From Eledone cirrhosa (lineage: Eukaryota), in contig OZ024740.1 of NCBI GenBank assembly GCA_964016885.1, positions 141,856,001 to 141,920,000 on the forward strand: 64,000 nucleotides of DNA, given 5' to 3'. A program made the translations under genes and the position numbers. This document shows positions 987 through 28,800 of the stretch, in pieces. The notes beneath the pieces are model-generated. The model searched no databases and was not told the DNA's origin. It worked only from the letters and a program-made list of their open reading frames with translations. Position 1 is the stretch's first letter; every line of letters begins with the position of its first letter.

Positions 987-1268
987 TAGAAGTAGTTCCA
1001 CAACAGTTAGTTCACCATACCTAGAATAAATGTTTCACCTTATGCTCGGTCTGAGTGAAGTTGTACGGAAAAGGAAAAACAACCGTATGAATACGCATGC
1101 GCAGAAACGGTCACTTCTCCTGGGAAATGTAATCCCACGGTCGAAGATTTGGATAAGGTGAAACATTTGTTCTCGGTATGGTGAACTAAGTGGAGCTACT
1201 TCTACCAAACTCGTCCCATGGACTGAGTACTCTGCTACTACGAATATAACCCTCCAGTGTTCTACTAT
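987..1268 (+). mobile_element. Hairpin+tail element E2 (~55-bp arms, ~110-nt spacer, ~64-nt tail)
   Basis: 987-1043 is inverted at 1153-1204 (5-nt indel, few mismatches). Tail contains GAGTACTCT (1225-1233). TA-type repeats on both sides. Confidence 0.65.
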
Positions 1269-1299
1269 TATATATATATATATATATATATATAAACAC

Positions 1300-1432
1300 A
1301 CAGCGGGTTTCTGCAATGTATCCCCATACCAAATTTAATAACGAATCATTGATCGACCCATAAAAAGCCAAGGTGCCACCAAATTGAAAACCACCTGGTT
1401 GTGAAGTGAACTTCTGGAAACAAAACACAGCT
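1300..1432 (-). mobile_element. Degraded tRNA-derived SINE remnant
   Basis: Minus strand ...CAACCAGGTGGTT...GTGGCACCTTGG... resembles cephalopod SINE heads (recognised from memory, not searched). Confidence 0.45.
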
Positions 1433-1880
1433 TTATCCCTTTCTTATTCTTTTCCATTCCATCAATAAGATATGCATAACTCCCATTCTACTACCACCCC
1501 TTCCTTTCTCATGCACTCTCTCTCTCTCTCTTTCTGTCACAATCTCTTTCTTTTCATCAATTTCCTTGAGTTTCTGATTGTTAAGAAATTATCTTAATTT
1601 ATTCGGTTGTCATAACTAAATTTAGATTTCAAATTTGCACTGATGATATCTTTTGAAATTGAAACACGTACGCACATGCAACTGGAATATTATCATGAAA
1701 CAAATAAGAACTAGATTATACCCGTCATTATTTTCCTCTTTTTAAAATTCATTTTCTAAATATATATTTTTTTAATAATACTTTTTAAAATGTTATTCCA
1801 AATAGCAAAAAAAATAATAAAATTTCTCACATGCCAATTTTTTCTTTCACAAATAACACATGGATCAAGGAAAAAGTGCG

Positions 1881-1892
1881 ATATATATATAC

Positions 1893-1982
<90 letters not shown>

Positions 1983-2073
1983 ATATGTATATATATAGAT
2001 GTATATATATATGTAAAAATATATGTATATATATATATATTTATATATACATATATATATACATATATATATA

Positions 2074-2122
<49 letters not shown>

Positions 2123-2224
2123 TATCTATACATACATATATATATGTATATATATATATGTATGTATATATATATATATATCTTTATACAAAAATACGTA
2201 CACATACGAGCACACACCCCACTA

Positions 2225-2289
<65 letters not shown>

Positions 2290-2305
2290 ACACACATATA
2301 TGTAT
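1881..2305. repeat. (TA)n/(TACA)n microsatellite block
   Basis: Direct inspection. Confidence 0.95.
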
Positions 2306-2671
2306 GTGGCTAAAAGACATTCTGATGGTGCTCCACCATAGTTTCAATAATTCAGCAAGCGCTTCATTACTGTCAGTAAAGCCGTCAGCAGTGTTGTTAA
2401 CCTCACAAATTGGGCACAACTTGAAACAGCTAACTATCTCCCTCACTAACTAACTAAATAAATAATATACATATTGATAACGAACATAAAAGTGATGTGC
2501 CGTAGGAATAAATAATACGACACACACACATACGCGCACGTGTTTATTGGTTTTTCTTACTACAAGTGTAAGAGAGAACCGTTTCAAATGCGTACTCAAT
2601 GCAAAATACGTGAGAATATAGATTTATTTGATGTAATTTATCGCTTCACGACAGATCTGTTCTACTAGGGA

Positions 2672-4050
2672 ACAAGTCGCAGGTGGCGGATAGTGATACG
2701 GCCACCAGATATGATAGTTAGTAGTGATATAAGCAGGCTCATGCCGGACGAATAAGCAATCTCGTACCAACAGCGATAAACTACCAAGGGGGATGGAGCA
2801 ATGGATGACACTGCTAGCTCAACAGAAAATTCTCACAATCCAGTGATGTAGCTACGACAAGTCAAGTAAGGGCCGCCTCTAAAAAAGCGGGTCTGAGAAA
2901 AGTACCAAATTAGTGACTGGTGCAAATAATACTACCAAAACACTGCAATATGGTTTGACACAACAAAGATAGTCATACCACATCGTCCTTAATGCAGGAT
3001 AGCAAAGGACATATTCAGGCCTTTCGTAGAGGGCATGTTCGAAAAAATATTTTACTGTCTCCACTCATCATTACAAGAACTGGGGATGGGCCTGTCCTTG
3101 GAAGCATGGAATGTAAGCACAAAGATTACGTATCCCGAAATCCCAGAGAGGCTCCAGAAGAGAGCAAACCTTGACTATTGGTAACTGGAACGTTACAACA
3201 TTTACAGGCAATGAATAGAAACTAGTGGAGGAAACCTGGTGCTCCCGGATAGGTATAGTCGGGGATTCTTCAACAAAACCCCGTGGCTTTGGTACTGTAA
3301 ATTTGAATAGAGAATGGAAACTCGACTAGTCAGGTGTGGAGGCAGTATTAGGATACTCACAACTCCCCGGCTGTCAGAATGTGTTATGGACTCGATTCCA
3401 TTAGGAGGGAGGATTTGCCTCGTGAAGCTTAAACTGAAATACAGATCACTGTAGGTGGCGCAGTTTATGCACCAGAGAGTCCGAATACATATCCTACCTT
3501 TCTGATGTCACTGCAGCATTATATGTATTTAAAACTGAATCATATCCTTGTGGGAGGCTTCAATGTACATGTTGGCACTCACTACATGACATGGAAAGGA
3601 GTGATTGGAAAGATCGGCGATCCCGATCTAAATACGAAGGGAGAGGCCTTATTAGAGTTCTGTTCTAGTAATGAGTTCTCCATAATGAACACCTTCCAGC
3701 TCAAAGATATCCACAAATATACATGGTATAAGGGAAATCGAGGATAGAGATCAGTAATTAACTTTGTTATTCTCTCTGATCTCTTTGATCCTGTACTGGA
3801 TGTTCGTGTTATGAGAGGGGCTGAGCTGTCAACTGATTACTATCTAGTTATTTGCAGCCTGAGCTTATCTAAAACAAAGAGAGCTCAACTTACAGGATAA
3901 AGTGGGAAGCGTTGGCAGATAAGGAAGTCATAAGCTGGTTTGCGGATACTTTTGCATCCAAATTCAGAGAACTCCCAGAGAACTTTTGTTGGTCCATTTT
4001 GTCTCCACTGTTACAGGTTCGGCTGCCTGAGCCAACTTTCTCTCCTGCTC
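2672..4050 (+). mobile_element. Degraded RTE-clade LINE 5' part (5'UTR + APE endonuclease pseudo-ORF)
   Basis: LTIGNWNVTT (~3171), GGFNVHVG, FSIMNTF..KYTWY and DVRVMRGAELSTDYYLV are APE motifs of RTE/Expander type; several stops and frameshifts. Confidence 0.75.
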
Positions 4051-4104
4051 AAATCTATATGGAACAATTCCATATTCTTTTCATCCGTTGCTGCAAACGT
4101 GCTT

Positions 4105-4255
4105 TTGTAGTTGTTGCTGCTGTTGCTGCTATTGTTGTTGGAGATGTTGTTGTTGCAGCTGCTGTTGTCATTGTTTTCGTTGTTTTTGCTATTGTTATTA
4201 TTATTGTTGCCGTTGCTTCTGCTTCTCTTGTTGTTACTGTTTCTGCTGCTGCTGC

Positions 4256-4310
<55 letters not shown>

Positions 4311-4345
4311 GGTGGTGGTGGTGGAGGTGGTGGTAGTGGTAGTGA
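4105..4345. repeat. (GTT)/(GCT)/(GGT) triplet low-complexity tract
   Basis: Direct inspection. Confidence 0.9.
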
Positions 4346-4744
4346 TGAAGGCGGTCTTATTGGTGATGAGCATAAATTTAAAGTGTAAAGCTCAAATATT
4401 TGTCGAAGGTCAAAATATGAGCTTCCTTTCTTCATGGCAAAGATTGGTGCCTTGTGTCCTCTTTGTAACTAAAACATTATACAAAACAACGATTTAAATA
4501 TGAAAAGCAACAAACTTATTGGAGCTTGAAATAACACCTCTACACAAACCAATAATAATAATAGTAACTCCAGGACTTAAAAAATATATACAGCATACAA
4601 AACACTTCGCACTGCACACATATTACGAAAAATACTATCAATACAATAGAAACAACATCAGCAAAAACCACACTGTTCATACCCAAGGCGCACAGAACTG
4701 TGCCCGGTAAAGCAGTAATGATGCGCAATAAAATTAATAATGGA

Positions 4745-4775
<31 letters not shown>

Positions 4776-4788
4776 TAATAATAATAAT

Positions 4789-5050
4789 AGGATTTGGAAC
4801 TGCCATGAAGTCAAAGTGATCCCGATTGTCATAGGCGCACTGGGGACTATCTCCAAAAGTTTCCAGGGATGGTTAAAGAAAATCGGCCCCTTCACGCTTT
4901 TTGGAACGCTTCAAAAGGCATGCTTGCTTGGAACAGCAAGAACCCTCCGATACGTCCTGAATATCTGAGGCTGCAGGTAGTGGCTTGATATTCAATCCAA
5001 CGGACTTTCCAGTTAACCAACATCAATGACTGAGATTCAAGGAATAACAA
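4789..5050 (+). mobile_element. 3' fragment of RLE LINE family A (R4/Dong-like) in (TAA)n
   Basis: Nearly identical to 15078-15340 (IWNCHEVKVIPIVIGALG...YVLNI* + 3'UTR); (TAA)n on both sides. Confidence 0.92.
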
Positions 5051-5051
5051 C

Positions 5052-5101
<50 letters not shown>

Positions 5102-5103
<2 letters not shown>

Positions 5104-8100
5104 TTTTCTTTATTGGCCACAAGGGCTGACATCAAGAAAAACATTACAGATGGCACAGGACGGTACAGGACAGTACGATGTGGGTTTTGTGCGTGTAAAG
5201 ATTTTTATTATTTATATAAGAAAAGAAAAAAAAGGACATAGAAACATATATATATATATAAACAATAAAAATGAAAATTGAAACAATGAAAAATTCCCCA
5301 ATAGGAGGGAAACCTCTGAGGGTTACTCGTGGCGAAAACCACACAAAAGACCACGGCCACCCTGACCACCAGGGCAAGCGCCCTCTCTCAATTTTTCCAT
5401 TTCTCAAACTACAGGCGTATATTCAGAGCGGCCCCGTTTACTCGGACCATTCTCGCTACATTCACCCATCTTTCAACAAACTTGTTAGAATGCAGCACTT
5501 GCCTCTCCACCCTGATTTTCCTTTTCAAGTGAAACTTGAAAAAGTTAATTAGGGATTCGCCGAAGAGGAAAGTATCTGTCTTTAACCCTTTCAACATTGT
5601 CCAACACACAATCTCTTTCGCCATGGCCACCAGGCAGATGAAAACCGCCTGCCCTTCCTCCTCGAAGGAAGACGGCGAGACCATCTGCACAATAGACTCA
5701 GTCGATAACTGGATCAGTACCACACGCGACAGCAACTGTTCAACATAGCTCCACAAGTTAGCAATGCTCGAACATTGAACGAGTGCATGCACGACGGTTT
5801 CGTCGCTCTGCGCGCATCTCGGACTGGCTCTGCTGACGGCACTTCCGTGCCTGTAGAGCTTATCTTGAACCGGCAATGCCCCCGGTAGCACTGCCAGGCC
5901 AGGGATTTCTGGAAGTTATCCATAGGCCCTGGGCTGAAAGTTCTCCGGAAGAGAGCAAACCGCTGATCTTCTTCGACGCCCAGGATCTCTCCGAAAAGGT
6001 GGTCTCTCTTCTCCTCCATTAGTCCTCAATAGAACGCCGAGGTGGATGTTCCACCGATACTGGTGCCCAGCTGGCAGAGGGCAGTGAGCACCTGGAGACA
6101 TTCCAGTTTCCAAGCGCTATCCCTCGGTCTTTTCCTGACCCAGGACTGCAGGCCCATTTCTGAGTGAGGGAGGCCACCTTGCTCGTCACCTCCCTCCAGT
6201 TTTTCTCCATCTGGAGGTCCGGTCCGAACCAGACCCCGAGCAATTTAACAGGTCCGTCCGTCCTACGCCCCACGACGCTGTCGGACGGCATGGACTTGCC
6301 TCTCCAGGTGCCGAGCTGCAAGCCCACCGACTTTTCCTGGTTTATTTTTGCTCCTGTCACCGCTTCGTATTCCTTGAGAGCGGTGCCGAGCACCTGGACG
6401 TGTCTGGTGCTCGACACCACCACGGTAATGTCGTCGGCGGAAGCCGACTCGGATTTCCCGCATCCTAGTTCGCGTGTGTGCAAGTAACGGCTCGAGAGTC
6501 AATACGTACAAGAGGGACGAGAAGGGACAACCCTGGCGGACCGAGCGCACGATGCTGAACGGCTGCGACAGGTGACCGTTCACCCTCACAATTGAGCAGA
6601 TGTTGCTGTACATCGCAGCGATCCAACCCCTGAAAACGGGCCCGAAACCGGCTGCCTCGAGGACCGCCGCCAGGTACCGATGGTCGACCCTATCGAATGC
6701 TTTGGATTGATCCAAGTTGATCAGGCCCCACCCGTGCCAGGTTCCTTGACCACCCTCTCTATTATGTATCGCATGAGTTGGAGGCTGTCGTGTATGGATA
6801 TGTCCGGAATGGGACATGTCTGCGCCTCTCACACCAGACCCTTGACGACAAGCGCCAACCCCGTTGCTAACACCTTGGCCAAAATATTGAACTCTGCGTT
6901 TAGCAGGGTTATGGGCCTGAAGTTATCGATAACATCCCCCTTGTTCGGGTCTTTTCTCAGCAGCCCCACCGCTCCCCAGCTCACAAAACTGGGAATGCTC
7001 CCGTTCTGCTGCCAGTTGCAGTAGACGTCTGCCAAGAGGTCACCGAACAAGTCTGGCATAAATGCATAAAGCTCGCAGGGCAGACCATCCAAACCTGGCG
7101 ATTTACCCCTCATGCAGTTAGCCATCGCTTCCCGTATTTCACCGGCTGTTATTGGCTTTTCGCAACACTGTACTGCGGTCATCGAGAGCCGAGGCAGTCC
7201 GTCGCGGTATGCACTGAAATCCATACCCCGATCCGGCCCGTTGCTGCTCCGGAACAGTTCAGCAAAGTGCTGCTGAAAAGCTTCACACATCTGCTCGGGT
7301 TGGAGCAACACGCGCCCGTTTTGATCAGATAAAGACCGAATTGTGGCTTTGTTGCCACGTCGCGGCTCTGCCACCTGGGCCCATTGGTCGGCTTTTGTTC
7401 CCTCGTGTTTCAGAGCTCTAGCTCTGACAACGCAGCCTTCGTGTTTTGCGTTGAAGAATTGGTCGAGTGCCAATATTGCCGCAAGCACGTGGGTTGCGAT
7501 GCCTGTCCTAAACGCCTCTTCTAGCTTTCTGACTAGCTCTGCCTCTACTCTATTTTCTTCTATCACTAGTTCTTTGCGAAACCTAATCGACTCTACTTTA
7601 ATTACCCTTTTCAGGGCGAACCACCACCTGTTGTTGACGACCGCTCCCGTAACGCTCGCTTAACTAATATGCTAATCCGGTCTCTGTAGGCTTTGCGCGC
7701 CGGGAAAGACGCGTTCAGCTTCCAGTAACCGGGTCCTTGTCTATGAAGTCTGTCTATGTCGATATCACAGATCACACATTTGTGGTCTGTGTAGTCGACT
7801 ATTTTAAATTGTGGACAACTTATACTAGCCTTATCTAGTTCTCTGCAGAATACCCTATCGAGATACGATCTGGATGACCCGATGCGGTTTGTCCATGTCC
7901 ACATTGGCACATTCGGGTGATCCAGTCTATACCTGTCAGACAGTTCAAAACGTCTGAGCAGGTTGGTGAGGCTCTTGCACCCTCCTTTCTATCCACTAGT
8001 CCCACACAAAACCCGCGTGCATCCAAGATACCGTTCCAGTCGCCCACTAACACTAAAGAGCGGGACGTTCCAAGAAAGGTCTCTAGACGTCTGAAGAAAT

Positions 8101-10130
8101 CTGGCCGTCCTGTCCCTGCCGGAGCATAGACGGTTACTAGCCTGAAAGCGTTGCCTTCGGTGCCGCTTACATCCAGCACCACCGACTTACCTTCTGGGTC
8201 CAGGAAAATGGTCCGTATGGCGAGACCCAAGCCTTTCCTAAACAACACAGCCACTACGCTCCCCGCTCCCGGACGGATCGGAGATGCGTACACCTCGTAA
8301 CCGTCCAAGATCGGTGCGAAAGCTTGCGTTTCAGAGATTCTCGTCTCGCTGATGGCCACCACATCTATGTTTAGTGACCTCAGGTCGTTAAGCAAGTGAC
8401 CCTGCTTCCAAACCGAGCTCAAGCCACGCACGTTTACATTTCCGATCCTGAATATGGCCATGTTGGGTGAGGAACGGGGCAAGTGAGAAAGGATCACTTA
8501 CCTTGATCGTCTGCTGAAGGAACCGTTGGATCGTCCCTTCGGCTGGTCGTCGGCTCCTTTGTGAGTATATCCGACTATACTCTCCGGTTGAGTGTCCCTC
8601 CTAAGTCTCTGAAATCACCAACTGCGTTGGGGAATTCATTTTAATGTTTGTGTATTGTTTCTGTGATATCCTTACCAGTCTTATGTCCGTTGGTGTTTTG
8701 ATTGGTGCTGGTATTATGTAATCGTGCTGTGAAATGTCTGTGTGTTCAATTATGTAAGTCATTAGTTTCTTGTTGTGTATATTTATTGTTGTGCATTTCT
8801 TTTTCTGGGGGTGGGGGTGTGGTTCTGCTATTTTCTTGTCGTTGTTGCTGGGTGTGTGTGTTTTGTTGTTGTGTTTGCGATGTTGGTGCTTGTGGTAGTG
8901 TTGTTGAAGGTGTTGTTGTTGTTGGCGGTGGGGTTGCCGCCGGTGGTGATGGTAGTGCTAGTGTGGGTGGTGATGGTGTTGGCGATGTTGCTGCTGCAAG
9001 TCTCTTTGCTGTAGCCTTCACACTTTTTTCATTTCTTCCCTTCCTTTTCAAAGGCGACGATGTGCTGCTTCTACGTTTGTGCCTCCTTGCGACCTTTTTC
9101 CATCCCTCTCCCACGTCACACTCCATGTCCGATTCTGTGAGGTCGGGGAGGTGTACCAGCTCCACTCTTTCACTTGTTCTTGTTGGTGATGGTTGCAGTG
9201 GAGTCTCTGTTGCAGCTGCAGTTGGTATTACTGTTGTTGTTGTTAATACTTCCACTGCTGCTGCTGTTCTTGATTTCCGTGGCGTGGGTATGGGTTCCAC
9301 GGACCTATCCTTCCTGCTTGCCGCCTCTCCTGTTGCTGGTAGCCGTGGAGCCGGTTTCGGTAGGAGGGGGTTTTCTCTTTTCTCAGGGTCTTCTCATTGC
9401 AGAAGGCCCTGAGGTGAATAATAGACCCACAGGGAATGCATTTCGGGCGTTTGCCCTCAACACATCGAAGTCTATCACATCCTGGATAGCTTCGATGCAC
9501 TCCTGGTTGGTTTGAATTAAAATCTCAATGGACGCGCCGACCCAATCTTCTCGTACTTTTTTCTGTACTTGCAATATGGTTGTTTTGTCCTCGATTCCGA
9601 CAAGGACAGACGCGGCCAGCCAAGAAGGGGCCATCTCGGGGGGGGGACTTGGGTCAGTTTGACCCTCACAATGTTTACCCGCAGTAGGAGGGCACCAACA
9701 TCATTTCCTCGCTCCTTAGTGTTACTAAGGATTGAGCCTTTGCCTCCTGGGCTGTGGCAAAAAGCACGTCCACGGTGGCATATTTCTTGCCTCGGGTGAT
9801 ATGCGTGTTCCGTTGCCACACATACCCTAAGGCTTTTTGTATTTGAGCCTCTGTGGCTGTTTCAACTCTACGTGATTTTGTGCTTACTGTACGGTACGTG
9901 ACCGTACAGTGCTGTGGGGTTTCGAAAAATTCTTCGGCTGCCTTGCATATTGCTCGGTGTCCGGTTTTCGTCACCATCTTCCTTGCTTCCTGTAATTCCT
10001 CATTTGTTATAAGGATGGTTTCCAGGTCCTTTGCGATACCTGCAAACGAGATTCGTTTTTCTTTCTTGTTATTGTCGTCATATCCGCTGTTGCTGTTGTT
10101 GTTGTTGTTGTTGTTGCTGTTGCTGCTGCT

Positions 10131-10162
<32 letters not shown>

Positions 10163-10771
10163 TGTTGTTGTTTATGCTGCTGCTGATGTTGTTGCGGCTG
10201 CTACTAGTATTTTCCTGGCCACTGTTGCTGCTGCTGCTGTTATTATGGCCGCTGCTGCTATTCTTCATGACGTCAGACGAATGAAATGGCTTTCCGTATT
10301 TACCGCACACATCTTTCGTTGTTGTCGTCGTGAAGAAATGTTCCACGGAATGCGCGTTCTCTTGATGAAGAACGCTACGAGAAACTACATTTTCCTTTTT
10401 CTTTAATGGCGTCGCTTGCGAAAGAGGCGACAGAGGCGACACCACGTTTAGAGAAGGGAAGGAGAGAGACAATATTTTCTCTGACGTAATGACGATTGGG
10501 GAAGAGGAAGACGGAAGGAGTGGGAGTGACTTGTGAAAATTATTCTTTGTAGATATGTTTTTTTACAGTTTAAAATGAATATTGGGCGCAAATCCCCAAT
10601 AACTGGTTATTTAACCCCGAAGGGCCAAATAACGGGCAGAAAGACCCCTCTCACGAGGAGGAGGGTGTCTTTATCTACAATTTAGTTCAAGTTTTAAACA
10701 ATTTACAATTGTTATAACGGTTAAAAATTACAATATCTTACAGAGCCGAGCCTCCGTCAAACATGGCATTC
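5102..10771 (-). mobile_element. Full-span, mutated Tx1-like (L1 group) LINE, copy 1
   Basis: ORF1 remnants ~10472-8500. ORF2 has APE (NVNVRGL, ISETR, VGDWN, TDH), RT (FRPITLLN, DQSKAFDRV, RQGCPFS, ADD) and C-terminal ETVVHALVQC. AATAAA near the 3' end; (TTA)n at both ends. Confidence 0.92.
5409..8497 (-). pseudogene. Tx1-like ORF2 (APE-RT-Zn finger), frameshifted
   Basis: Split among ORFs 7835-8497, 7611-7910, 6829-7566, 6263-6832, 6019-6483, 5714-6019 and 5409-5891. Confidence 0.9.
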
Positions 10772-10827
<56 letters not shown>

Positions 10828-10829
<2 letters not shown>

Positions 10830-11130: not shown

Positions 11131-11193
<63 letters not shown>

Positions 11194-12362: not shown

Positions 12363-15340
12363 TCGGTTGACATCCTAAAGATTCGGTTGACATCCTAAAT
12401 TTAGTGGAAGATGAGTTGAACAATGATAGTGGGAGACCTATGAACCTAAGATTTGTAGACAGGAAAAAGTTAAAAGAAACAACAGCTAAGGTAAACAAAG
12501 TCATCCCATACCTTGAGGCGAGGAGTCTTCACCAGTGCAACAATATCCTCAAAGCAACAGCAAATACGGTGAGGAAACTACTTGGTATAAAAGCGAGAGG
12601 AAACAACAGACAAGAAAGAGCAGAGCCGTGGTGGAAGAAGCGACTGAGTGGGCAAATCGGGGAAATGAGAAATGACATAGGAAAGCTTGAGTCACTACTG
12701 AATGGGACACTAAAAAACATAGGCACTAAAAATAGACTGGAAATAAAATACAAAACTAGGAGTAAAAAGCTAAATATTATCATAGAGGAATTGAAGCAAC
12801 GCATTGTAGCAAAGAGTGCCAAAATCAGGCGATACGAGAACAGAGTCAGTCAGTATAAACAGAACCGCATGTTCGACAACAACCAGAAGATGCTGTTTGG
12901 ACAGCTTGAGGGGAAAGAAAGAGGCAACGACTTGATCCCTGGGGCGGAACAAGCTAAAACATTCTGGAGAGGAATATGGGAGCAGGATGTTAGACACAAT
13001 GCCCAGGCAGGGTGGATTGAGACAGTACAGAGGGAGATCGGTGAGCAGGCACAGCAACAGACTGATTTGAGTATCACAGTTGAAACTCTTAAGGGGCAAG
13101 CCAAAAAACTAACCAACTGGAAATCACCAGGCCCAGATGGTGTGCAGGGGTATTGGATTAAACATTTAACATCCCTCCACCCGAAGCTGACGGCCATGTT
13201 CAATGACTGCTTGGTGTCGGGTGAGGTGCCAGAGTGGTTGACAAAAGGTACCACAGTTCTGATAATGAAAGACCGAATCAAGGGTAATGATGTTACCAAC
13301 TATAGACCTATCACATGTCTGCCCGTAATGTGGAAACTGTTGACGAGCATTGTGTCTGAGGAAATCTACCATCACCTCCACACAAACAACTTGTTGCCGG
13401 ACGAACAGAAAGGATGCCGAAAGAAGTCACGTGGTACAAAGGACCAGTTGCTTATTGATAAGATGGTAATGGGGAATTGCAGGAGGAGACACACTGATCT
13501 TGCCATGGGATGGATAGACTACAGAAAGGCATTTGACATGGTGCCTCATTCCTGGATCACCAAAAGCCTGGAGATCTTCAGGGTGGCAGATAACATCAGA
13601 CAGTTGCTGGGCAGGAGTATGGGGTCATGGGAGACAGAGTTGACATCAACTGGAGTATCCTTGGGAAGCGTGAAGATCAAGAGAGGTATCTTCCAGGGAG
13701 ATAGCCTGTCCCCTCTGTTGTTTGTCCTTGCCCTGATGCCCTTGACCATTATGCTGCGAAAAGTGAGAGCAGGATACAAGTTGGGAAGGGGAGAGCTTAC
13801 CATCAATCACCTCCTCTTCATGGACGATCTTAAGCTCTTCGGGAAAAGTGAGAAGGAGTTGGATGTGCTTGTTGACACTGTCCGTATTTTCAGCAGTGAT
13901 ATATGTATGCAGTTTGGTATTGGTAAATGTGGAGTCATTGTGATGAGGAGGGGTAGGTTGAGCAGAAGTAACGGGATCCAGATACCAACAGGTGAGATGA
14001 TAAAGGAAATTGACTCTGAGGAAGGATACAAGTATTTGTGCGTTCTGGAGGCTGATGGCATAAAGAACAAAAAAATGAAGGAATTGTTAAGAACTGAATA
14101 CATTCGGAGAGTAAGGAGCGTATTGAAGTCACATCTGAACAGCAGAAATGCCATAAGCGCAGTAAATTCCCGAGCTGTGTCTATTATTAGGTACAGTGCG
14201 GGAATTCTGAGATGGAATGTTGCTGAACAAAAAGAAATGGATAGGAAGACTAGGAAGCTATTGACTATCTACAACATGTTCCACAAGAGGAGTGATGTCG
14301 ATAGACTCTACCTAAGGAGATCTGAGGGTGGAAGAGGTCTTATCAGCATAGAGGACTGTGTTCAGATGGAGAAAAACAACCTATACAAATACGTGACCTA
14401 TAGTAAGGAGCCAATGCTCAGAGCTGTACTGAAGGAGGGGACAGTAGGCCAGGGGATATCCAAGGAGGAAATAACATCAAGGAGGAAGAGCAGCCTTAAG
14501 GGAAAATCCCTTCATAGTACCTTCTTTGAGAAAACTGAATTTAGAGATCCACAGACATGGAACTGGTTGAGAAGAGGAGACCTCAAAAAGGCTACAGAAG
14601 GAATGCTAATGGCTGCGCAGGAGCAGGCCCTCAAAACGAAGTGGTTGAAGCACCATATCTACAAGGAGGAGGCTAGCCCACTGTGCAGGATCTGTGGAGA
14701 GAGAGAGGAGACTGTGGCTCACATTGTGTCCGAGTGTAAACACCTAGCCCAGACCCACTATAAGGGCTGGAGACACGATGTGATGGGCAGGGTGATCCAC
14801 TGGCACCTGTGCAAAGTAAACAATCTACCACATTCTGAGAAATGGTATGAGCATAGGCCAGAGGCGGTGATGGAGAACAGTCAGGTGAAGGTGCTGTGGG
14901 ATTTTAGGATACAGACGGACAAAAAACTGGAACACAATAGACCTGACCTGGTGGTTGTGGACAAAGAAAAAAGATCGTGCCTGATTGTGGATGTGGCCTG
15001 CCCGTTCGACACGAGAGTGCAAGAGAAGGAGAGGGAGAAAATTAACCGATACCAGGACCTAAAGTGGGAGGTGAAAAGGATTTGGAACTGCCATGAAGTC
15101 AAAGTGATCCCGATTGTCATAGGCGCACTGGGGACTATCTCCAAAGGTTTCCAGGGATGGTTAAAGAAAATCGGCCCCTTCACGCTTTTTGGAACGCTTC
15201 AAAAGGCATGCTTGCTTGGAACGGCAAGAACCCTCCGATACGTCCTGAATATCTGAGGCTGCAGGTAGTGGCTTGATATTCAATCTAACGGACTTTCCAG
15301 TTAACCAACATCAATGACTGAGATTCAAGGAATAACAATA
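12361..15340 (+). mobile_element. 5'-truncated RLE LINE family A (R4/Dong-like), young copy
   Basis: Uninterrupted 950-aa ORF and short 3'UTR; (TAA)n on both sides. Confidence 0.95.
12404..15256 (+). CDS. Non-LTR polyprotein: RT + CCHC zinc knuckle + restriction-like endonuclease (N-terminus probably missing)
   Basis: KSPGPDG, NYRPITCL, IDYRKAFDMV, GIFQGDSLSP, LFMDD, CRICGEREETVAHIVSEC, RHD, RPDLVVVD..IVDVACP..K..RY. Confidence 0.93.
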   Translation: MEDELNNDSGRPMNLRFVDRKKLKETTAKVNKVIPYLEARSLHQCNNILKATANTVRKLLGIKARGNNRQERAEPWWKKRLSGQIGEMRNDIGKLESLLNGTLKNIGTKNRLEIKYKTRSKKLNIIIEELKQRIVAKSAKIRRYENRVSQYKQNRMFDNNQKMLFGQLEGKERGNDLIPGAEQAKTFWRGIWEQDVRHNAQAGWIETVQREIGEQAQQQTDLSITVETLKGQAKKLTNWKSPGPDGVQGYWIKHLTSLHPKLTAMFNDCLVSGEVPEWLTKGTTVLIMKDRIKGNDVTNYRPITCLPVMWKLLTSIVSEEIYHHLHTNNLLPDEQKGCRKKSRGTKDQLLIDKMVMGNCRRRHTDLAMGWIDYRKAFDMVPHSWITKSLEIFRVADNIRQLLGRSMGSWETELTSTGVSLGSVKIKRGIFQGDSLSPLLFVLALMPLTIMLRKVRAGYKLGRGELTINHLLFMDDLKLFGKSEKELDVLVDTVRIFSSDICMQFGIGKCGVIVMRRGRLSRSNGIQIPTGEMIKEIDSEEGYKYLCVLEADGIKNKKMKELLRTEYIRRVRSVLKSHLNSRNAISAVNSRAVSIIRYSAGILRWNVAEQKEMDRKTRKLLTIYNMFHKRSDVDRLYLRRSEGGRGLISIEDCVQMEKNNLYKYVTYSKEPMLRAVLKEGTVGQGISKEEITSRRKSSLKGKSLHSTFFEKTEFRDPQTWNWLRRGDLKKATEGMLMAAQEQALKTKWLKHHIYKEEASPLCRICGEREETVAHIVSECKHLAQTHYKGWRHDVMGRVIHWHLCKVNNLPHSEKWYEHRPEAVMENSQVKVLWDFRIQTDKKLEHNRPDLVVVDKEKRSCLIVDVACPFDTRVQEKEREKINRYQDLKWEVKRIWNCHEVKVIPIVIGALGTISKGFQGWLKKIGPFTLFGTLQKACLLGTARTLRYVLNI

Positions 15341-18828: not shown

Positions 18829-18859
18829 TACATACATACATACATACATTTAACGTAAT

Positions 18860-19200: not shown

Positions 19201-19410
19201 ACAGTTTTTACATATATATATACATATGTTCGTACATACGTACATGCACACATACGTACATGCACACATACGTACATGCACACATACGTACATGCACACA
19301 TACGTACATGCACACATACGTACATGAACACATACATATATACATAGATATACATACAGAAGGACAACACATACACATATATTCATATAAACATTCATAG
19401 ATCAATACGT

Positions 19411-19625
19411 ACATACATGGTGATTGCTTCATCTTTGCAGATGATTGCCGTCTTCCTATTCACCCCCAACAACCGACACCAACTTTAAACGCCCGTTCAT
19501 GGCCTCTTAGGTAGCTTTTAGGTCCAGCTGCAGATTTGCACGATCTGCAGCAAATGTGACAGACATTGGATTGATTGAGTTAGTTAGTGGGATGTCAGTT
19601 TGTGGGATGTCATACTTATGTACCC
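19411..19625 (-). mobile_element. RTE 3' fragment with C2H2-like finger
   Basis: Minus VCHICCRSCKSAAGPKSYLRGH; ends ...ATCACC-ATGTATGT. Confidence 0.7.
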
Positions 19626-19735
19626 TCGTACTCCTTTTAAGACGGTATATACATACATAGACACACATACACAGACATACACATATATTTATACATACGT
19701 ACGTACACATGTACATACATATATACTTATATACA

Positions 19736-19769
<34 letters not shown>

Positions 19770-20184
19770 CATACATACGTACATACATACGTACATACAT
19801 ATATACATACATAGACACACATACACAGACATACACATATATTTATCAATACGTACGTACACATGTACATACATATATACTTATATACATACATACATAC
19901 ATACATATATACATACATACATATATACATATATACATACATAGACACACATACACATACATACACACATACAAACACATATTTATACATACGTACGTAC
20001 ACATGTACATACATATATACTTATATACATACATACATACATACATACTTACATACATACATACATATATACATACATACGCACATACATATATACATAC
20101 ATAGACACACATATACATACATACACACATACAAACACATATTTATACATACGTACGTACACATGTACATACATATATACTTAT

Positions 20185-20215
<31 letters not shown>

Positions 20216-20329
20216 CATACATACGTACATACATATATACATACATAGACACACATACACATACATACACACATACAAACCCATATTTATACATACGTAC
20301 GTACACATGTACATACATATATACTTATA

Positions 20330-20363
<34 letters not shown>

Positions 20364-20481
20364 CATACATACGTACATACATATATACATACATAGACAC
20401 ACATATACATACATACACACATACAAACACATATTTATACGTACGTACGTACACATGTACATACATATATACTTATATACA

Positions 20482-20515
<34 letters not shown>

Positions 20516-20860
20516 CATACATACGTACATACATATATACATACATAGACACACATACACATACATACACACATACAAACACATATTTATACATACGTAC
20601 GTACACATGTACATACATATATACTTATATACATACATACATACATACATACATACATACATACATACATACATACATACATACATACATACATACATAC
20701 ATACATACATACATACGTACATACATAAATACATACATAGACACGCATACACATACATACACACATACAAACACATATTTATACATACGTACGTACACAT
20801 GCACATACATATATACTTATATACATATATACATATATACATACATATATGCATACATAT
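19626..20860. repeat. (CATA)-derived minisatellite, ~8 units of ~140-190 bp
   Basis: Landmark ACGTACGTACACATGTACATACATATATACTTATATAC recurs at ~19697, 19851, 19991, 20151, 20296, 20443, 20595 and 20787. Confidence 0.85.
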
Positions 20861-21184
20861 ATGATGGCTGCTCCCTCGTTATCGAGTATAGCCACTGCAC
20901 GAGGAGAAAAAAATATATATATATATACATACATATATACATACATATATACATACATATATACATACATACATACATATATACATACATATATACGTAC
21001 ATACATATATACATACATAGACACACATACACAAACATACGCACAGAGAAACACATATCCATACCTACGTACATACACACGTATATACAAACGTAGATAC
21101 ATACATACATGCATACATACATACATACATACATACATACATACATACATACATACATACATACATACATACATACATACATAC

Positions 21185-21357
21185 AAGCGCAGCTCCCTAA
21201 TTCATAGTCTACAAATGGCTGCGATAGCTGGCACCTTCAAAATTTGCAAAACATACTTTCGATTCAAGGGATGACAATTTCTTTTCTTTTACAATCTTGC
21301 CACCAGGAAGGTGGCCGGTCAAAAAAATATACTCGAAATTAAGAGAAAGAGATAATA
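21185..21357 (+). mobile_element. 3' tip of RLE family C inserted in (CATA)n
   Basis: SLQMAAIAGTFKICKTYFRFKG* parallels QSINGTVKICKTF (~53960-54020) and KICKTLLRFKG* (~52980-53015); CATA arrays on both sides. Confidence 0.7.
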
Positions 21358-21441
21358 TACAAACATATATACATACATACATACATACATACATACATAC
21401 ATACATACATACATACATACATACATACATACATACATACA

Positions 21442-21507
<66 letters not shown>

Positions 21508-21513
21508 CATACA

Positions 21514-21547
<34 letters not shown>

Positions 21548-21553
21548 CATACA

Positions 21554-21587
<34 letters not shown>

Positions 21588-21613
21588 CATACATACATAC
21601 ATACATACATACA

Positions 21614-21647
<34 letters not shown>

Positions 21648-21717
21648 CATACATACATACATACATATATACATATATACATACATACATACATATATAC
21701 ATACATATATACATATA

Positions 21718-21751
<34 letters not shown>

Positions 21752-22067
21752 CATATATACATATATACATGCATACATACATACATATATACATACATAC
21801 ATACATATATACATACATACATACATACATATATACATACATACATATATACATATATACATGCATATATACATACATATATACATATATACATACATCG
21901 TATTTCCCTGTCTACAGATGTTGCTGTCAAAATTCCCATAATTGAGATTTCTTTCTTACACTCTGGCATGCGTTTAATAAAAAAAAAAAAAAAAAAAGCC
22001 ATGCAAGCATGTTCATACACACGTATCCTCGCCACACACTCACACACGTACCACTGCGTGCACACAT

Positions 22068-22159
<92 letters not shown>

Positions 22160-22260
22160 CCAAAATTAAATTAAGGGTTGTATGTATTTATTTTATATAT
22201 ATATATGTCAATCTATTTCTAGTTGATATATATATATGTATACATATATATGTATACATA

Positions 22261-22350
<90 letters not shown>
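21358..22350. repeat. (CATA)n and (TA)n microsatellites
   Basis: Direct inspection. Confidence 0.95.
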
Positions 22351-22352
<2 letters not shown>

Positions 22353-22439
22353 TACATGTACATTCACACATCCATAATGATGTATATATAGACACACAGA
22401 ATATAAATATAAAATAATAATAAAGAAATCGTTATTTTG

Positions 22440-24490
22440 ATCATCCTCATCATCATCATCATCCTCATCCTCCTCCTCCTCATCATCCTCATCATCATCC
22501 TCATCCTCATCCTCATCCTCATCATCATCCTCATCATCATCATCCTCATTATTATTATTACATGTTTTTCACCCGAAAGCAGGTGACATTGACAGGAATT
22601 CATATTTTATCATCATCATTATTGACATCATCACCACTACCATCGTCATCATCAGTTTCAGCTTCCCCATCATCATATCATCATAAACCCCTACACTTCT
22701 TTCACTACCATCATCATTATAACTCCCACCACTACCACCACCACCACCACCACCACCACCACCACCACCACCACCACCACCACCACCACCACCACCACCA
22801 CCACCACCACCACCACCACCACCACCACCACCACCACCTCCACCACCACCACCACCACCACCACCACCAACACCACCACCACCACCACCACCACCACCAC
22901 CACCACCACCACCACCACCACCACCACCACCACCACCACCACCACCACCTCCACCACCACCACCACCACCAACATTACCACCATTAGCACCAACACCAAC
23001 ACCTACCACCACCTCCAACACCACCACCACCTCCAACACCACCACCACCTCCAACACCACCACCACCTCCAACACCAACATTACCACCAACATTACCACC
23101 ATTAGCACCAACACCAACACCTACCACCACCTCCAACACCACCACCACCTCCAACACCACCACCACCTCCAACACCACCACCACCTCCAACACCAACATT
23201 ACCACCATTAGCACCAACACCAACACCTACCACCACCACCACCTCCAACACCACCACCACCTCCAACACCACCTCCAACACCACCACCACCTCCAACACC
23301 AACATTACCACCATTAGCACCAACACCAACACCTACCACCACCACCACCTCCAACACCACCACCACCTCCAACACCACCTCCAACACCACCACCACCTCC
23401 AACACCAACATTACCACCATTAGCACCAACACCAACACCTACCACCAACACCACCTCCAACACCACCACCACCTCCAACACCAACATTACCACCATTAGC
23501 ACCTCCAACACCAACATTACCACCATTAGCACCAACACCAACACCTACCACCACCACCACCACCTCCAACACCACCACCACCTCCAACACCACCACCACC
23601 ACCACCACCACTCCAACACCACCACCACCTCCAACACCAACATTACCACCATTAGCACCAACACCAACACCTACCACCACCACCTCCAACACCACCACCA
23701 CCTCCAACACCACCTCCAACACCACCACCACCGCCAACACCAACATTACCACCATTAGCACCAACACCAACACCTACCACCACCACCACCTCCAACACCA
23801 ACATTACCACCATTAGCACCAACACCAACACCTACCACCACCACCACCTCCAACACCACCTCCAACACCACCACCACCTCCAACACCAACATTACCACCA
23901 TTAGCACCAACACCAACACCTACCACCACCACCACCTCCAACACCAACATTACCACCATTAGCACCAACACCAACACCTACCACCACCACCACCACCTCC
24001 AACACCGCCACCACCTCCAACACTATCACCATTACCAACACAACCACCAGCAATACCACGACCACTACTACCACCACCACCACCACCACCACCTCCAACA
24101 CTACCACCATTACCAACACGACCACCAGCACTACCACGACCACTACTACTACCACCACCACCACCACCACCACCATTACCACCACCACCAGCAGTACCAC
24201 CACCACCACCACCACCAGCTCTACCACTACCACCACCACCTTCAGCAGTACCAGCACCACCACCATCAGCTCTACCACCACCACCACCACCACCACCAGC
24301 AGTACCACCACCACCACCAGCTCTACCACCACCACCAGCAGTACCACCACCACCACCACCACCACCAGCAGTACCACCACCACCACCACCACCTCTACCA
24401 CCACCACCACCACCACCAGCAATACCACCACCACCACCGCCATCACCACCAGCAGTACCACCACCACCACCACCACCAGCAGTACCACCA
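22440..24490. repeat. (CAT/CCT)n, (CCA)n and a CCA-derived ~106-bp minisatellite (~22970-23990)
   Basis: Landmark CCACCATTAGCACCAACACCAACACCTACC recurs about 11 times, several at exact 106-nt spacing. Confidence 0.9.
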
Positions 24491-24523
24491 TCTACACACA
24501 ATTGTCTGTGTGAGATAAGGTAC

Positions 24524-24571
24524 CTGACCATAGTCTTGTATGTCTGTGACAGCCTTCGCCACTTTCCAGAG
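24524..24571 (-). CDS. Candidate 48-nt host exon (LWKVAKAVTDIQDYGQ)
   Basis: ttttcag|CTC...CAG|gtacct; phase 0-0, compatible with 17579-17759; unique island between simple repeats. Confidence 0.25.
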
Positions 24572-24897
24572 CTGAAAATCGAATTTTTTTAACTGCAGCA
24601 GATAAAATTAAAATCACTTTGTTGTAGCCATGACAACCACAGCAGCTCCACATTCTCTGAGACAGCCTGGCGTTATTTCTCTGTGATGATAGAGAAGTAT
24701 TGGTTGGCGATGTTCATAGTGATGGTGGTGGTGGTGCTGGTTGTAGTGGAGGTTGTAGTTATAGTGGTGCTGGGCTGTTGTGTTGGTGGTTGTAGTAGCG
24801 GTGTTTGTAGTTATAGTGATGCAGGATTGTAGTGTTGGTGGTCATGATAGTGATGGATGTAGTTATGGTGCTAGTTGTCCTGGGCTTTACTACTAGT

Positions 24898-25460
24898 GGT
24901 TGTGGTGCTATTGTGGTTGCAGTTATAGTGGTACTGGGCTGTAGTGTAGGTGGTTGTGGTGGTTGTGGTGCTATTGTGGTTGCAGTTATAGTGGTACTGG
25001 GCTGTAGTGTAGGTGGTTGTGGTGGTTGTGGTGCTATTGTGGTTGCAGTTATAGTGGTACTGGGCTGTAGTGTAGGTGGTTGTGGTGGTTGTGGTGCTAT
25101 TGTGGTTGCAGTTATAGTGGTACTGGGCTGTAGTGTAGGTGGTTGTGGTGGTTGTGGTGGTGCTATTGTGGTTGTAGTTAAGGTTATAGTGGTACTGGGC
25201 TGCAGTGTAGGTGGTTGTGGTGGTGGCTGCAGTTGTAGTTAAGCTTATAGTGGTACTGGGCTGTAGTGTACGTGGTTGTGCTGGTGCTATTGTGGTTGTA
25301 TTTAAGGTTATAGTGGTACTGAGCTGTAGTGTGGGTGTTTGTGGTGGTGGTGTTGGTGGTTGTAGTTGTGGTACTAGTTGTACTGGGCTGTAGTGTAGGT
25401 AGTTGTGGTGGTGGTGGTTGTAGTTGTGGTGCTAGCTGTACTGGAATGTAGTGTTGATGG
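24898..25460. repeat. 63-bp GGT/GTA-rich minisatellite (4 near-perfect copies, then decaying)
   Basis: TGTGGTGCTATTGTGGTTGCAGTTATAGTGGTACTGGGCTGTAGTGTAGG at 24901, 24964, 25027 and 25090. Confidence 0.9.
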
Positions 25461-26138
25461 TTGTGGTGGCTGTAGTTGTAGTTATAGTACTAGTGATACT
25501 GAGTGTAGGGTCTTGTCGTAGTGTTTTGATGGTAAGGGAGTTGGAGTTGTATTGGTGGTGGTTGTGGTAGTGGTGATGTGTGATGTTGTGGTAGAGGCTA
25601 TGGTGATAGCAGTGTTGTTGGTTGTAGTAGTGGAATTGAATATCGTTATGGGAGTGGCTATAGTGATAGTAAAATTGTTTGGACTATAGTGTTGGTAGTT
25701 TTAATAGTATTTAGTTTAGTTGTAGTGATTGTAGCGGTTGTTGTGATAGTGGTACTGAATTACAGTATTGGGGGTTATAGCAGCGATTTTAATTGTTGTG
25801 GTTGTGGTGATATGGAGACAGTTTGAGCTATAACGATAGCGATTCTCGCGGCAACGGTGTTATGTATTATTGTAGTGGTGATTATGCTGATTGTAGTATT
25901 GGCAGTTATGTTAGTGGTGTTGAGTATTTTTGTAGTGGCTACTATGATGAGAGTAGTGTTGGTAGTTGTGTTAGTGGTGTTGAGTATTGTTGTGGTGGTG
26001 GCTGCCGTCATATTGAGAGAGTGTGGGGGTGTAGAGTTAGTGGCAGTAGTTTTACTAAAAGCAAAGGTTGAAGTGACGGCTGTTGTTAACGTAGTAGTAA
26101 CATCTGTAATACACGTTAATATTCTGTAATCCCAGGAC

Positions 26139-26300
26139 AAGGCGGTGAAATGCTAGAGTCATTAGAATGTGGGATAGAATGCTTTGCAGCATTGGTTCCG
26201 ACTGTCTATGTTCTCATTTCAAATCATGCCGAGGTCAACTTTGCTTTTCATCATTTCGAAGTCAATTACCAGGCCTGAACTAGAGTCGACACCCCTTCTC
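26139..26300 (+). mobile_element. Degraded SINE
   Basis: AAGGCGGTGA...TTCAAATC..GCCGAGGTCAACTTTGCTTTTCATC resembles a common cephalopod SINE (recognition). Confidence 0.55.
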
Positions 26301-26867
26301 TCTCTTTCTCTTTCTCCGTCTCTCACTCTCTCTCTTTCTGGAAGATATCGACTGTTTAGACATAGAAAGTGATGGGCTCGCCGGGTTTATATGCCCGAGA
26401 AGCGCCGTATATCACAACTGCGCTCCCACTACTCTACCAGCAGTTCAGGTTCCATGGATGGTCCATGTAACACTAGGTCAAACCTAATAGAATGTTGTTA
26501 GTGGAACAGATGACGAAGTAGATTTCAGAGATCCATCTTCCCAGATATAACATTTCTCCAACTAGCTTAAGTATATCCTGCCATACTGCAGAATCAAACG
26601 TTACCTGTCTTATGATAAACAAGTAAGTTTCGGAGTACACGTTTACCATTATGGGCAGCAGTATGTAAATAAATAAAAAATACCTTATATATATAGGTGT
26701 GTGTGTGTGCATGTAGATTACCGAGTTGTGACGGGGGCAATCACAGTTAAAAAAGGCAGACATTCCTGGTGATTTCATACGAATAGAACAGTTCTAGTCA
26801 TGTAGAAGTCATTTCTGTATATATATATATATATTATTATTATGTAATAAACAACATAAGGCAATTA

Positions 26868-26927
26868 TTCCATTTACCAGTGGTTTCTTAAAAGCAAAAG
26901 GTTTTGCTTTCAATCCTCAGAATGAAA
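26868..26927 (-). ncRNA. Type I hammerhead ribozyme (mirror copy in E3)
   Basis: Exact reverse complement of 27001-27060. Confidence 0.8.
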
Positions 26928-27000
26928 AATCCTGGTTTGTTTATTGAATATGGATTCTAAAAACTTTTTAGAATCCATATTCAATAAACAAACCAGGATT

Positions 27001-27060
27001 TTTCATTCTGAGGATTGAAAGCAAAACCTTTTGCTTTTAAGAAACCACTGGTAAATGGAA
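27001..27060 (+). ncRNA. Type I hammerhead ribozyme
   Basis: TTTCATT-CTGAGGA-[TTGAAAGCAAAA cc TTTTGCTTTTAA]-GAAA-CC act GG-TA^-AATGGAA: 7-bp helix I, intact CUGANGA/GAAA core, GUA site (predicted cut after 27053). Confidence 0.85.
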
Positions 27061-27187
27061 TAATTGCCTTATGTTGTTTATTACATAATAATAATAATTA
27101 AGCTCTGTTGCCTACATAGAGCACTCTTTTTTCCTGGACTTTTCCGATGGAATTACTTCATTCACACACATATATATATATATATAT

Positions 27188-28593
27188 GTATTGAAATTTC
27201 CGTTGAAAACAGAAAAGGTCATAGAAGTGAAGAGTGCTCTATGTAATAACCAGAGCAAAATTTTATGTATAAAAATCAATACAATATAATTACCTCATTA
27301 CCAGAGGTTTCCCGAATGAGGCGAATTCGAAAGAAACGTCTTCATTCGTTCGTCAGACGAGGCAATATAAAACATGGCTAAATACTTGGAAAGTCTCATC
27401 AAGAAAAGCCAAAAAAATTATATAAATATAGACAAAGGAATTACAATAGCCATATGAAATATATAAAAATCTTTCAAGAAATATAGTTAGGTGTGTGTAT
27501 ATGTATGTATATACGCTCACAGATGTACATATGTGTGTATGTACAAATGTGTACGTATAGTGAAAAAGTGTGCGTAAATATATGTGTTAGGGCGGTGTAT
27601 CTGTGTATCTGCAACTACAGACAGACATGATGTGGTTGTCTGTTTAGCAGGTACACAGAAAAAACGGGGTATTAGATACATTATAAGAATATGAAGGCAC
27701 GCGTATCAACACACCCACACGCACGTACACTTATATGCGGAAGTAAAAGAGGTAAGGGAGTGTAATAATTAAAAGAAAGTATCATTCTCGATATATTTAT
27801 AAAAATGGAACAATAATTTAGAAAGAAAAAATTAAAGAAAAGAAGACAAACAAGGTACACGCGTACACACACACGTATATCTACAAGAAACGTATATCTA
27901 TAAGAAATATATATATATATACACGCAAAAACGTGCAGACAAAAGCGTATGCAAGCACACATACACACATAGGATGCACATATATACGCATATACGCCTC
28001 GCCCCATGTATATCTAATCACGCGCACGCACGCGACTGTATACACACTCGCACACACACACACACGCAAAAATATACATGCTTATATACATACGCACACT
28101 TACACATCCATACTTTCGGTACGTACACACACACACACACACACATACATACACTCACGCATATTGACCTGTTTACATGCACACACATAAAAATGAGGAT
28201 GTAAAAAAAGAGAAAAAACAAAACAAAAACAAAAAACATAGATGTAAAAACACAGATATAAAGACACATATACATACACATATATATATATATACACGCA
28301 CGCGCGCGCACATACGGCGGCGTTCGTGTACATATATAGAATGTATACACACATTAAGGCGTTCAGACACATAGATACAGGGTGTAAAAAGCTTTGTGGA
28401 TAAGTAAGTACAAATATAAAATTATAAGATTGGCTGCGAAATAACAAAAAATATCTGGAGTGGAAAACGCAAGTGACTTTGGTAATCAGTTAGTGAAGAA
28501 AATAAGGAAGTAAAAAGTGGAAAGTGAAGGTATTCGCCTCATTCGGGAAACCTCTGATAATGAGGTAATTATATTGTATTGATTTTTATACAT
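27188..28593 (-). mobile_element. Hairpin+tail element E4: 62-bp inverted arms (27265-27326 / 28532-28593), 1.2-kb interior, ~77-nt tail
   Basis: Arms differ by 1 nt; tail (27188-27264) is homologous to the E3 tail in opposite orientation; (TA)n flanks. Confidence 0.75.
27289..27366 (-). ncRNA. Type I hammerhead ribozyme (E4)
   Basis: Minus: ATTGCCTCGT-CTGACGA-a[CGAATGA...TCATTCG]g-GAAA-CC tct GG-TA^-ATGAGGTAAT; 10-bp helix I; first helix II pair is an A.G mismatch. Confidence 0.8.
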
Positions 28594-28606
28594 TATATAT
28601 ATATAT

Positions 28607-28800
28607 ATAGGAACGAGTAGGACCCCGACGGCTGAGCTCAAGCCGTTTGGACGGCTAATTCGGGTCCAGAATTAGCTGTCGAAACGGCTTGAGCTCAGCC
28701 GTCGGGGTCCTACTCGTTCCTATTACCCACTCTACTACCCTAAGTATTGAGTACTTTGGTGCGTTATGGTCCACCTGGTTCCTTACCACATTTCTTCCGT
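28607..28800 (+). mobile_element. Hairpin+tail element E5: 117-bp palindrome with the 3' half of a hammerhead + ~77-nt tail
   Basis: 28607-28723 is palindromic. Right arm reads [helix II]-GAAA-CGGCT tgagctc AGCCG-TC^-GGGGTCC. Tail GAGTACTTT at 28749-28757; (TA)n on both sides. Confidence 0.8.

Follow-up and report, generated by a model that had tools for sequence, protein, structure and literature searches.

Penelope-like elements (PLEs) of the Hydra clade are defined by an RWK-type motif, DKT, a CxCx5C linker, the absence of CCHH, and CxxC and CxH motifs; the defining paper also names, as a question still open, how the PLE tail and the inverted 5′ copy arise (PMC8557442). A close biochemical system is a PLE of the anole, for which the available parts of an in vitro study report that both target strands are cut and extended, that two internal RNA starts bound the tail and that RNA 3′ of the starts is required; RNA-seq read ends were found at the two start sites, the product was unchanged by adding or trimming 3′ sequence, and no signal that sets the starts was found in those parts (PMC11167929). 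In published work, tails and inverted copies are already described, as are hammerheads, TA targeting and internal initiation. In the following we discuss a 64,000-nucleotide stretch of the Eledone cirrhosa genome (assembly GCA_964016885.1, contig OZ024740.1, positions 141,856,001 to 141,920,000 of the forward strand; "the window"), in which four fold-back insertions of Hydra-type PLEs, families B, C, D and E, each carry a predicted bulged hairpin at the start of the tail.

A sequence-only reading of the window had drawn attention to a 9-mer, GAGYACTYT, lying at a fixed distance beyond the inverted arm in four tails. Our window search recovered all four 9-mers at the positions and on the strands claimed, and the distances are borne out: with the arms ending at 1204, 27096, 27265 (minus strand) and 28723, the motifs begin 21, 23, 26 and 26 nt further on. 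The features concerned are the following, in window coordinates (UTR, untranslated region; pLTR, pseudo-long terminal repeat).

987..1204, plus strand: family B fold-back, an inverted 5′-truncated copy (from 987) joined to a direct copy ending at 1204; the hammerhead core is degenerate; an open reading frame (ORF) lies upstream of the same end in locus L166
1205..1268, plus strand: family B tail, then (TA)n
1209..1228, plus strand: predicted family B hairpin 1, ACTC / inner hairpin / 1-nt U bulge / GAGT; pair probability 0.92-0.99
26832..27096, plus strand: family C fold-back with perfect 132-nt arms; predicted direct-arm hammerhead core, CTGAGGA at 27008 and GAAAC at 27041; ORF upstream in L156
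27097..27167, plus strand: family C tail, then (CA)/(TA)n
27102..27122, plus strand: predicted family C hairpin 1, GCTC / inner hairpin / UA bulge / GAGC
27188..27264, minus strand: family D tail, then (TA)n
27236..27256, minus strand: predicted family D hairpin 1, GCTC / inner hairpin / UA bulge / GAGC
27265..28593, minus strand: family D insertion, a direct 3′ UTR/pLTR copy of about 1.27 kb with a predicted hammerhead core at 27356-27350 and a short inverted copy at about 28530-28593; ORFs in L162 and L164
28607..28723, plus strand: family E fold-back with arms of about 58-60 nt; ORF upstream in L161
28724..28800, plus strand: family E tail, then (TA)n
28729..28752, plus strand: predicted family E hairpin 1, ACTC / inner hairpin / UU bulge / GAGT; the isolated tail has a different minimum-energy fold

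The 9-mer occurs five times in the window where 1.47 occurrences are expected, and five or more were reached in 2 of 100 shuffles, a modest excess if taken by itself. The fifth match, at 53373 on the minus strand, lacks both the U-started bulge and the upstream RCTC and sits in a decayed reading frame; we take it as chance. That frame (52900-53450, minus strand) appears to resemble the restriction-like endonuclease end of a non-LTR (long terminal repeat) element. The pattern was originally fitted to just the four window copies, and these four cases are not independent, because C and D are sister families with cross-matching tails. A further fold-back with a tail, family A at 303-955 (1403 first-look candidates), has no GAGYACTYT and no hairpin motif; its tail of 41-48 nt is at the left end, and a linked ORF was not found in the 20 loci examined.

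The conserved unit is a predicted bulged hairpin, RCTC-[inner hairpin]-UN-GAGY, of which the 9-mer is the 3′ strand. Elements with flush arms plus a tail were searched for automatically in 1.67 Mb of fetched DNA; the 165 found fall into 40 clusters, and from these clusters and from read-through leaders 31 units of the form RYTC - inner hairpin - UN - GARY were picked by eye. Position determined which bases were taken as the 5′ strand, and the first GAGY which were taken as the 3′ strand; pairing was not used in placing either, and pairs were then counted by script; MAFFT failed to align the 5′ stem strands across the variable loops. The outer pair is A-U in 11 units and G-C in 19, with no crossed combination and a single U-C. 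The first two inner pairs are formed in 29/31 and 29/31 units against 18.0 and 14.8 in shuffles (0/5000), figures that are not probabilities, since the families are related. The bulge is 2 nt long in 30 units, its initial U being part of the selection rule, and TA stands at −6/−5 in 16. The exact 9-mer is present in only 7 of the 31, and in family B it reads GAGTGCTCT in 15/25 and GAGTACTCT in 3/25 fetched copies, so that as a conserved unit it does not hold in this family or this genome.

The distance from the start of the stem to GAG ranges from 12 to 71 nt in these units; the constant distance is therefore to the RCTC strand, about 6 nt from the copy end, and not to GAGY. Within a family the stop of the inverted arm is fixed. 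Among the fetched copies having a partner in range (25 copies each were fetched for E, D and B, and 30 for C), the gap between arm and motif is 25 nt in 16 of 20 for family E, 23 nt in 7 of 9 for D, 18-25 nt in 10 of 11 for C and 19-27 nt in 9 of 13 for B. Most units enclose 6-17 nt; in the sister families D and C the second hairpin described below holds a 65-nt insert (leaders of L164 and L290). The two hairpins of a family often agree in the bases that follow GAGY, and these bases differ between families (leaders of L180, L278, L013 and L164), as expected for a putative family-specific protein contact. The unit is absent from the tails of six non-Hydra families, five of them linked to Neptune-type ORFs and one to another CCHH-type ORF.

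The motif is indeed present at the arm end, as the sequence-only reading had it, but a second occurrence marks the outer end of the tail as well. In read-through leaders (families C, D, E, F, H, M and c6; L278 and L013) a second unit begins a few bases past the tail end, which gives the order hammerhead - site 2 - hairpin 1 - tail - site 1 - hairpin 2 - ATG. A read-through copy of family B was not found, and a hairpin-2-like sequence after the B and c3 tails (L046, L238) was not counted, as it matches the tail of another family. Copies end either at site 1, with the tail, or at site 2, without it, both ends lying in (TA)n, and the 3′ ends of each family form two peaks just before hairpin 1 and hairpin 2. 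At loci of this genome compared with seven leaders, 198 of 216 TA-flanked ends lie in the 0-10 nt ahead of a hairpin, 88 at hairpin 1 and 110 at hairpin 2. Since tail queries had fetched most of these loci, the fair test is an unselected sample of 60 evenly spaced 10-kb stretches (600 kb), in which 33 of 39 TA-flanked ends fall in the same windows (16 before hairpin 1, 17 before hairpin 2); the background is 55 of 450 TA/AT positions (12%). With the TA-target overlap allowed for, and families B and K left out, the modal junction range takes in an offset of 6 nt at 17 of 24 sites; at three sites this offset is tied and at four it is absent, the last comprising one true exception, one reference error and two cases from a diverged reference. 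Since hairpin 2 lies outside the tailed inserts, it would act on the template or on an intermediate. Some copies (L046, L238, L166) are little more than a tail beginning just before hairpin 1, and look as if a site 1 cDNA had stopped near site 2.

The same arrangement is found in relatives that were chosen on their proteins only. Searching metagenome contigs with a profile returned 78 loci (31-41% best-segment identity), 53 with the N-terminal anchor and 42 with at least 200 nt upstream, which fall into 32 families. Two units are present in 21 of these families, one in 6 and none in 5, some of the last having foreign flanking DNA; in the controls, 1 of 9600 shuffled leaders had two units, and one unit turned up in a set of 150 ORF windows. 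Of 48 units, 47 form the first inner pair (17 U-A, 30 C-G) against 36.4 when shuffled (0/5000); hairpin 1 usually has U-A there and hairpin 2 has C-G. The hairpins are spaced 55-74 nt apart, T stands at −6 in 30/48 and A at −5 in 30/48. Of 20 partial copies, belonging to 10 leaders, 12 stop within the 0-6 nt that precede a stem; a single chimeric leader accounts for 5 of the remaining 8. By eye, the Hydra consensus sequences in the published material available to us (PMC8557442) contain clear units in three of six cases and imperfect ones in two: Hydra-1_Ajap has both hairpins, Hydra-2_Amil and Hydra-2_Ajap end with hairpin 1 plus the tail, and those of Crog and Obim have imperfect variants.

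In one respect the relatives are closer to the original 9-mer than the families of this genome are: 29 of 52 metagenome 3′ motifs match GAGYACTYT, which is thus near their consensus. This retention of the sequence after GAGY, together with the near-palindromic GAGYRCTC, would suit a linear signal in double-stranded DNA, either an internal promoter or a palindromic protein site, that fixes the arm end. We consider this very improbable, as the second half of the motif is free to vary in this genome and the distance to the end tracks the length of the loop. The internal promoter, an option of the sequence-only reading, is made unlikely by the covariation of the two halves and by the loops of 6-65 nt that lie between them. 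An inherited residue with no role in setting ends, such as a translation or packaging signal, would fit the facts that all carriers are related and that hairpin 2 is near the ATG; we give it hardly any credence, for the ends follow both hairpins as the spacing varies from 55 to 106 nt, and do so across families whose protein identity is 31-38%. What stands of the earlier proposal of a cis signal for the end of the inverted copy is a conserved signal fixed relative to the arm end, which remains the best candidate, in base-paired rather than linear form.

The shape of the fold-backs bears on how many such ends are used. Fifty-eight were taken and 57 aligned; the inverted arm is more than 10 nt longer in 7 of these and the direct arm in 13, and since either arm can be the longer, two cDNA starts are needed. 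A single cDNA folding back from the tail end is thereby ruled out as the only route. The arms agree within 3 nt in 23/57 fold-backs, compared with 10.9 by within-family permutation (0/10000), and this excess of equal arms suggests one shared template end. Most junctions are flush or show short overlaps or small templated inserts.

From the observed geometry and covariation, and by analogy with the anole element, which extends both strands from two internal starts bounding the tail (PMC11167929, in the parts available), we infer binding, priming and joining as follows. Each hairpin probably binds the element protein on the RNA and sets the start of the reverse transcriptase (RT) about 6 nt 5′ of the stem, the tail being the spacing between the two starts; we put the probability of this reading at roughly 0.6. 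The GIY-YIG endonuclease would cut (TA)n on both strands, and each DNA 3′ end would pair with the UA found 6-5 nt before a stem and prime cDNA there. Synthesis from one end of the break would begin at site 1 and keep the tail, and from the other at site 2, with the same RNA or an identical one as template, and the two 5′-truncated cDNAs would be end-joined head to head. The expected product is an inverted repeat with a one-sided tail as long as the distance between the two hairpins. That two protein copies might act together is a guess. A bolder version, to which we allow somewhat less than an even chance, sees the pair as a doubled portable RNA ruler, in which each hairpin docks one RT and both ends of the (TA)n break are extended from one RNA, with starts 6 nt 5′ of the stems; if so, the hairpin alone would fix the start on any RNA put before it.

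Several observations weigh against RT starts set by the hairpins. A strict automatic scan finds hairpin 1 in just 13 of 41 cluster representatives; it missed six that were counted by eye, owing to a mis-called arm end, a shortened tail or an imperfect pair, and many of the clusters are something other than tails. The 31 units owe their selection to the eye and come from related families. Folding is uneven: the minimum-energy fold contains the stem in three of the four window tails, with a stem probability of about 0.2 in family E, and both hairpins appear in the predicted fold of only 2 of 6 full leaders, with mostly weak z-scores. Hairpin 2 of family E, known from one copy, has a broken pair. 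Six of the 39 ends in the unselected sample fall elsewhere, as do 9 of 10 ends without a microsatellite. The anole element belongs to another clade, and the RNA stretch in its Fig. S1 is without such a motif (PMC11167929, in the parts available). Finally, the strand test does not pick between RNA and antisense DNA (G.U 11 versus A.C 7, p=0.48), and the TA at the junction is equally compatible with an endonuclease preference.

These last two points leave room for another explanation, in which the hairpins form in single-stranded DNA or in a hybrid intermediate and guide GIY-YIG cleavage to a point about 6 nt off, so that the copy ends would be cut sites resolving a longer cDNA. The stems fold on the antisense strand as well in three of the four window tails, Craig et al. 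ascribe the tail to endonuclease resolution (PMC8557442, in the sections available), and earlier work cited in the accessible parts of PMC11167929 found the tail of the Drosophila element to be required for endonuclease recognition. We nevertheless regard it as unlikely: the sole full-length PLE system in vitro maps the tail ends to starts of reverse transcription (same source, same parts), and the DNA intermediate would have to reach past hairpin 2 and be single-stranded at both sites. Alternatively, the hairpins could direct the formation of RNA 3′ ends, by cleavage or termination just 5′ of the stems, with the RT starting at ordinary RNA 3′ ends. The geometry would be identical to that of internal starts, and the anole read ends at the two start sites would be accounted for, but the indifference of the product to 3′ additions or trimming and the requirement for RNA 3′ of the starts (PMC11167929, as above) speak against it. 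In tandem transcripts, moreover, a cut at site 1 or 2 would detach the ORF from its leader, and upstream there is already a hammerhead; we judge this route quite improbable.

As for the identity of the elements, the four tails are, by the motifs of the predicted proteins, the 3′ ends of four high-copy PLE families with Hydra-clade features, inserted in (TA)n. First-look candidates, which are not copy numbers, amount to 2145 for B, 1048 for C, 1719 for D and 436 for E, and long copies of all four run upstream into RT and endonuclease coding sequence. As in endonuclease-bearing (EN+) PLEs generally, the RT and a GIY-YIG domain at the C-terminus lie in one ORF upstream of the repeat end, and a pLTR, an inverted 5′-truncated copy and a one-sided tail are present. 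Hammerhead cores (CTGANGA...GAAA) are predicted in the window copies of C and D, in other copies of B and in family F; that of E is non-canonical, and an Rfam search at gathering thresholds gave no match in the window, including no hammerhead. Family F has an intact 737-aa ORF and is young, with at least 30 places identical over the N-terminal 120 residues and many 738-codon frames, and it forms a three-unit tandem with a period of 4011 nt (G000:C7:78454703-78463084).

The N-termini available, from D, E and F, show RWK plus DKT in D and RWR plus DKT in E and F, DKT replacing DKG. Translations of F, B and E have the CxCx5C linker and lack CCHH, and close to their C-terminus they show CxxC and CxH; a C-terminal CxH is also seen in C and D. 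With the Hydra clade as described in the available sections of PMC8557442, these elements share the single ORF with RWK/RWR, DKT, CxCx5C and, at the C-terminus, a GIY-YIG-like domain without CCHH but with CxxC and CxH, as well as the pLTR hammerhead, the (TA)n targets, the inverted 5′-truncated copy and the one-sided tail; the tails are 60-140 nt long here and 30-40 nt in the published elements. Hydra elements are generally short (<3 kb), a tendency and not a strict rule, from which family F, with its 4011-nt tandem period, departs; the units are longer because of microsatellite-rich 3′ UTRs.

None of seven Hydra-type ORF pieces matched Pfam, and no solved structure matched the protein in a structure search; a 30-sequence profile matches a Pfam-positive RT/GIY-YIG ORF with 97% probability, and the nearest named homologues are from Argonauta hians. 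The label Poseidon was dropped once the protein motifs were compared with the definitions in the available sections of PMC8557442. Membership of the Penelope/Poseidon or Neptune clades is rejected, as CCHH and two Cys between GIY and YIG, present in L138-type ORFs, are lacking, with one or no Cys there in F, E and B. A miniature inverted-repeat or other DNA transposon, which would have fixed terminal inverted repeats around a fixed interior, is rejected as well: arm lengths and centres differ from copy to copy, and many copies are without an inverted arm.

The remainder of the window contains a 30-bp satellite at 29854-51420, with 719 copies and 95% matches; its stop-free frames reach 6992 codons, and its GC skew is strong. 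Fragments of the LINE (long interspersed nuclear element) type, with RT and apurinic/apyrimidinic (AP) endonuclease, lie at 12371-15256, 56427-58545, 61209-62777 and 5409-8497, one frame having 961 codons.

No description of twin hairpins or of the 6-nt offset was found in the literature searched, subscription papers and Repbase notes being outside its coverage, and the available sections of Craig et al. 2021 (PMC8557442) mention neither hairpins nor an end rule. The hairpins give annotators a boundary rule for Hydra elements and, if they set RT starts, would explain the one-sided tail. A structure of about 25 nt with a fixed offset, kept across distant animals, supplies exact bases to mutate and move, and family F offers intact young ORFs. 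The RTs of PLEs are the sister group of telomerase, so that a defined RNA start signal bears on the evolution of template register.

A known system close to the one proposed here is the Poseidon element PAc of Anolis (Frangieh et al. 2024, PMC11167929), with its two cut and extended strands, its two internal starts bounding the tail and its need for RNA 3′ of them. PAc differs in clade and in starting inside the ORF, in a stem-loop rich in AC, and the parts of that paper available define no repeated covarying signal. The Neptune-type PLEs of the genome studied here (L136-L152) have the same insertion anatomy as its Hydra-type elements, with a flush inverted copy, a tail and (TA)n targets, but differ in a CX2-5CxxC linker, in the Cys between GIY and YIG, and in tails of 33-61 nt without the hairpin. 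In two of their leaders (L144:7590-7720, minus; L138:1915-2010, plus) the tail start pairs with sequence just past the tail end, in a single predicted helix that loops out the outer end. The helix may serve this clade as a start signal of its own; in a third copy (L150) the minimum-energy fold is a different one. Protein-bound RNA structures also set the cDNA register in the hepadnavirus epsilon, the telomerase template boundary and the R2 3′ UTR. The signal proposed here would differ from these in being placed 3′ of the start, in not being copied at site 1, in being doubled, and in having cut genomic (TA)n as the primer.

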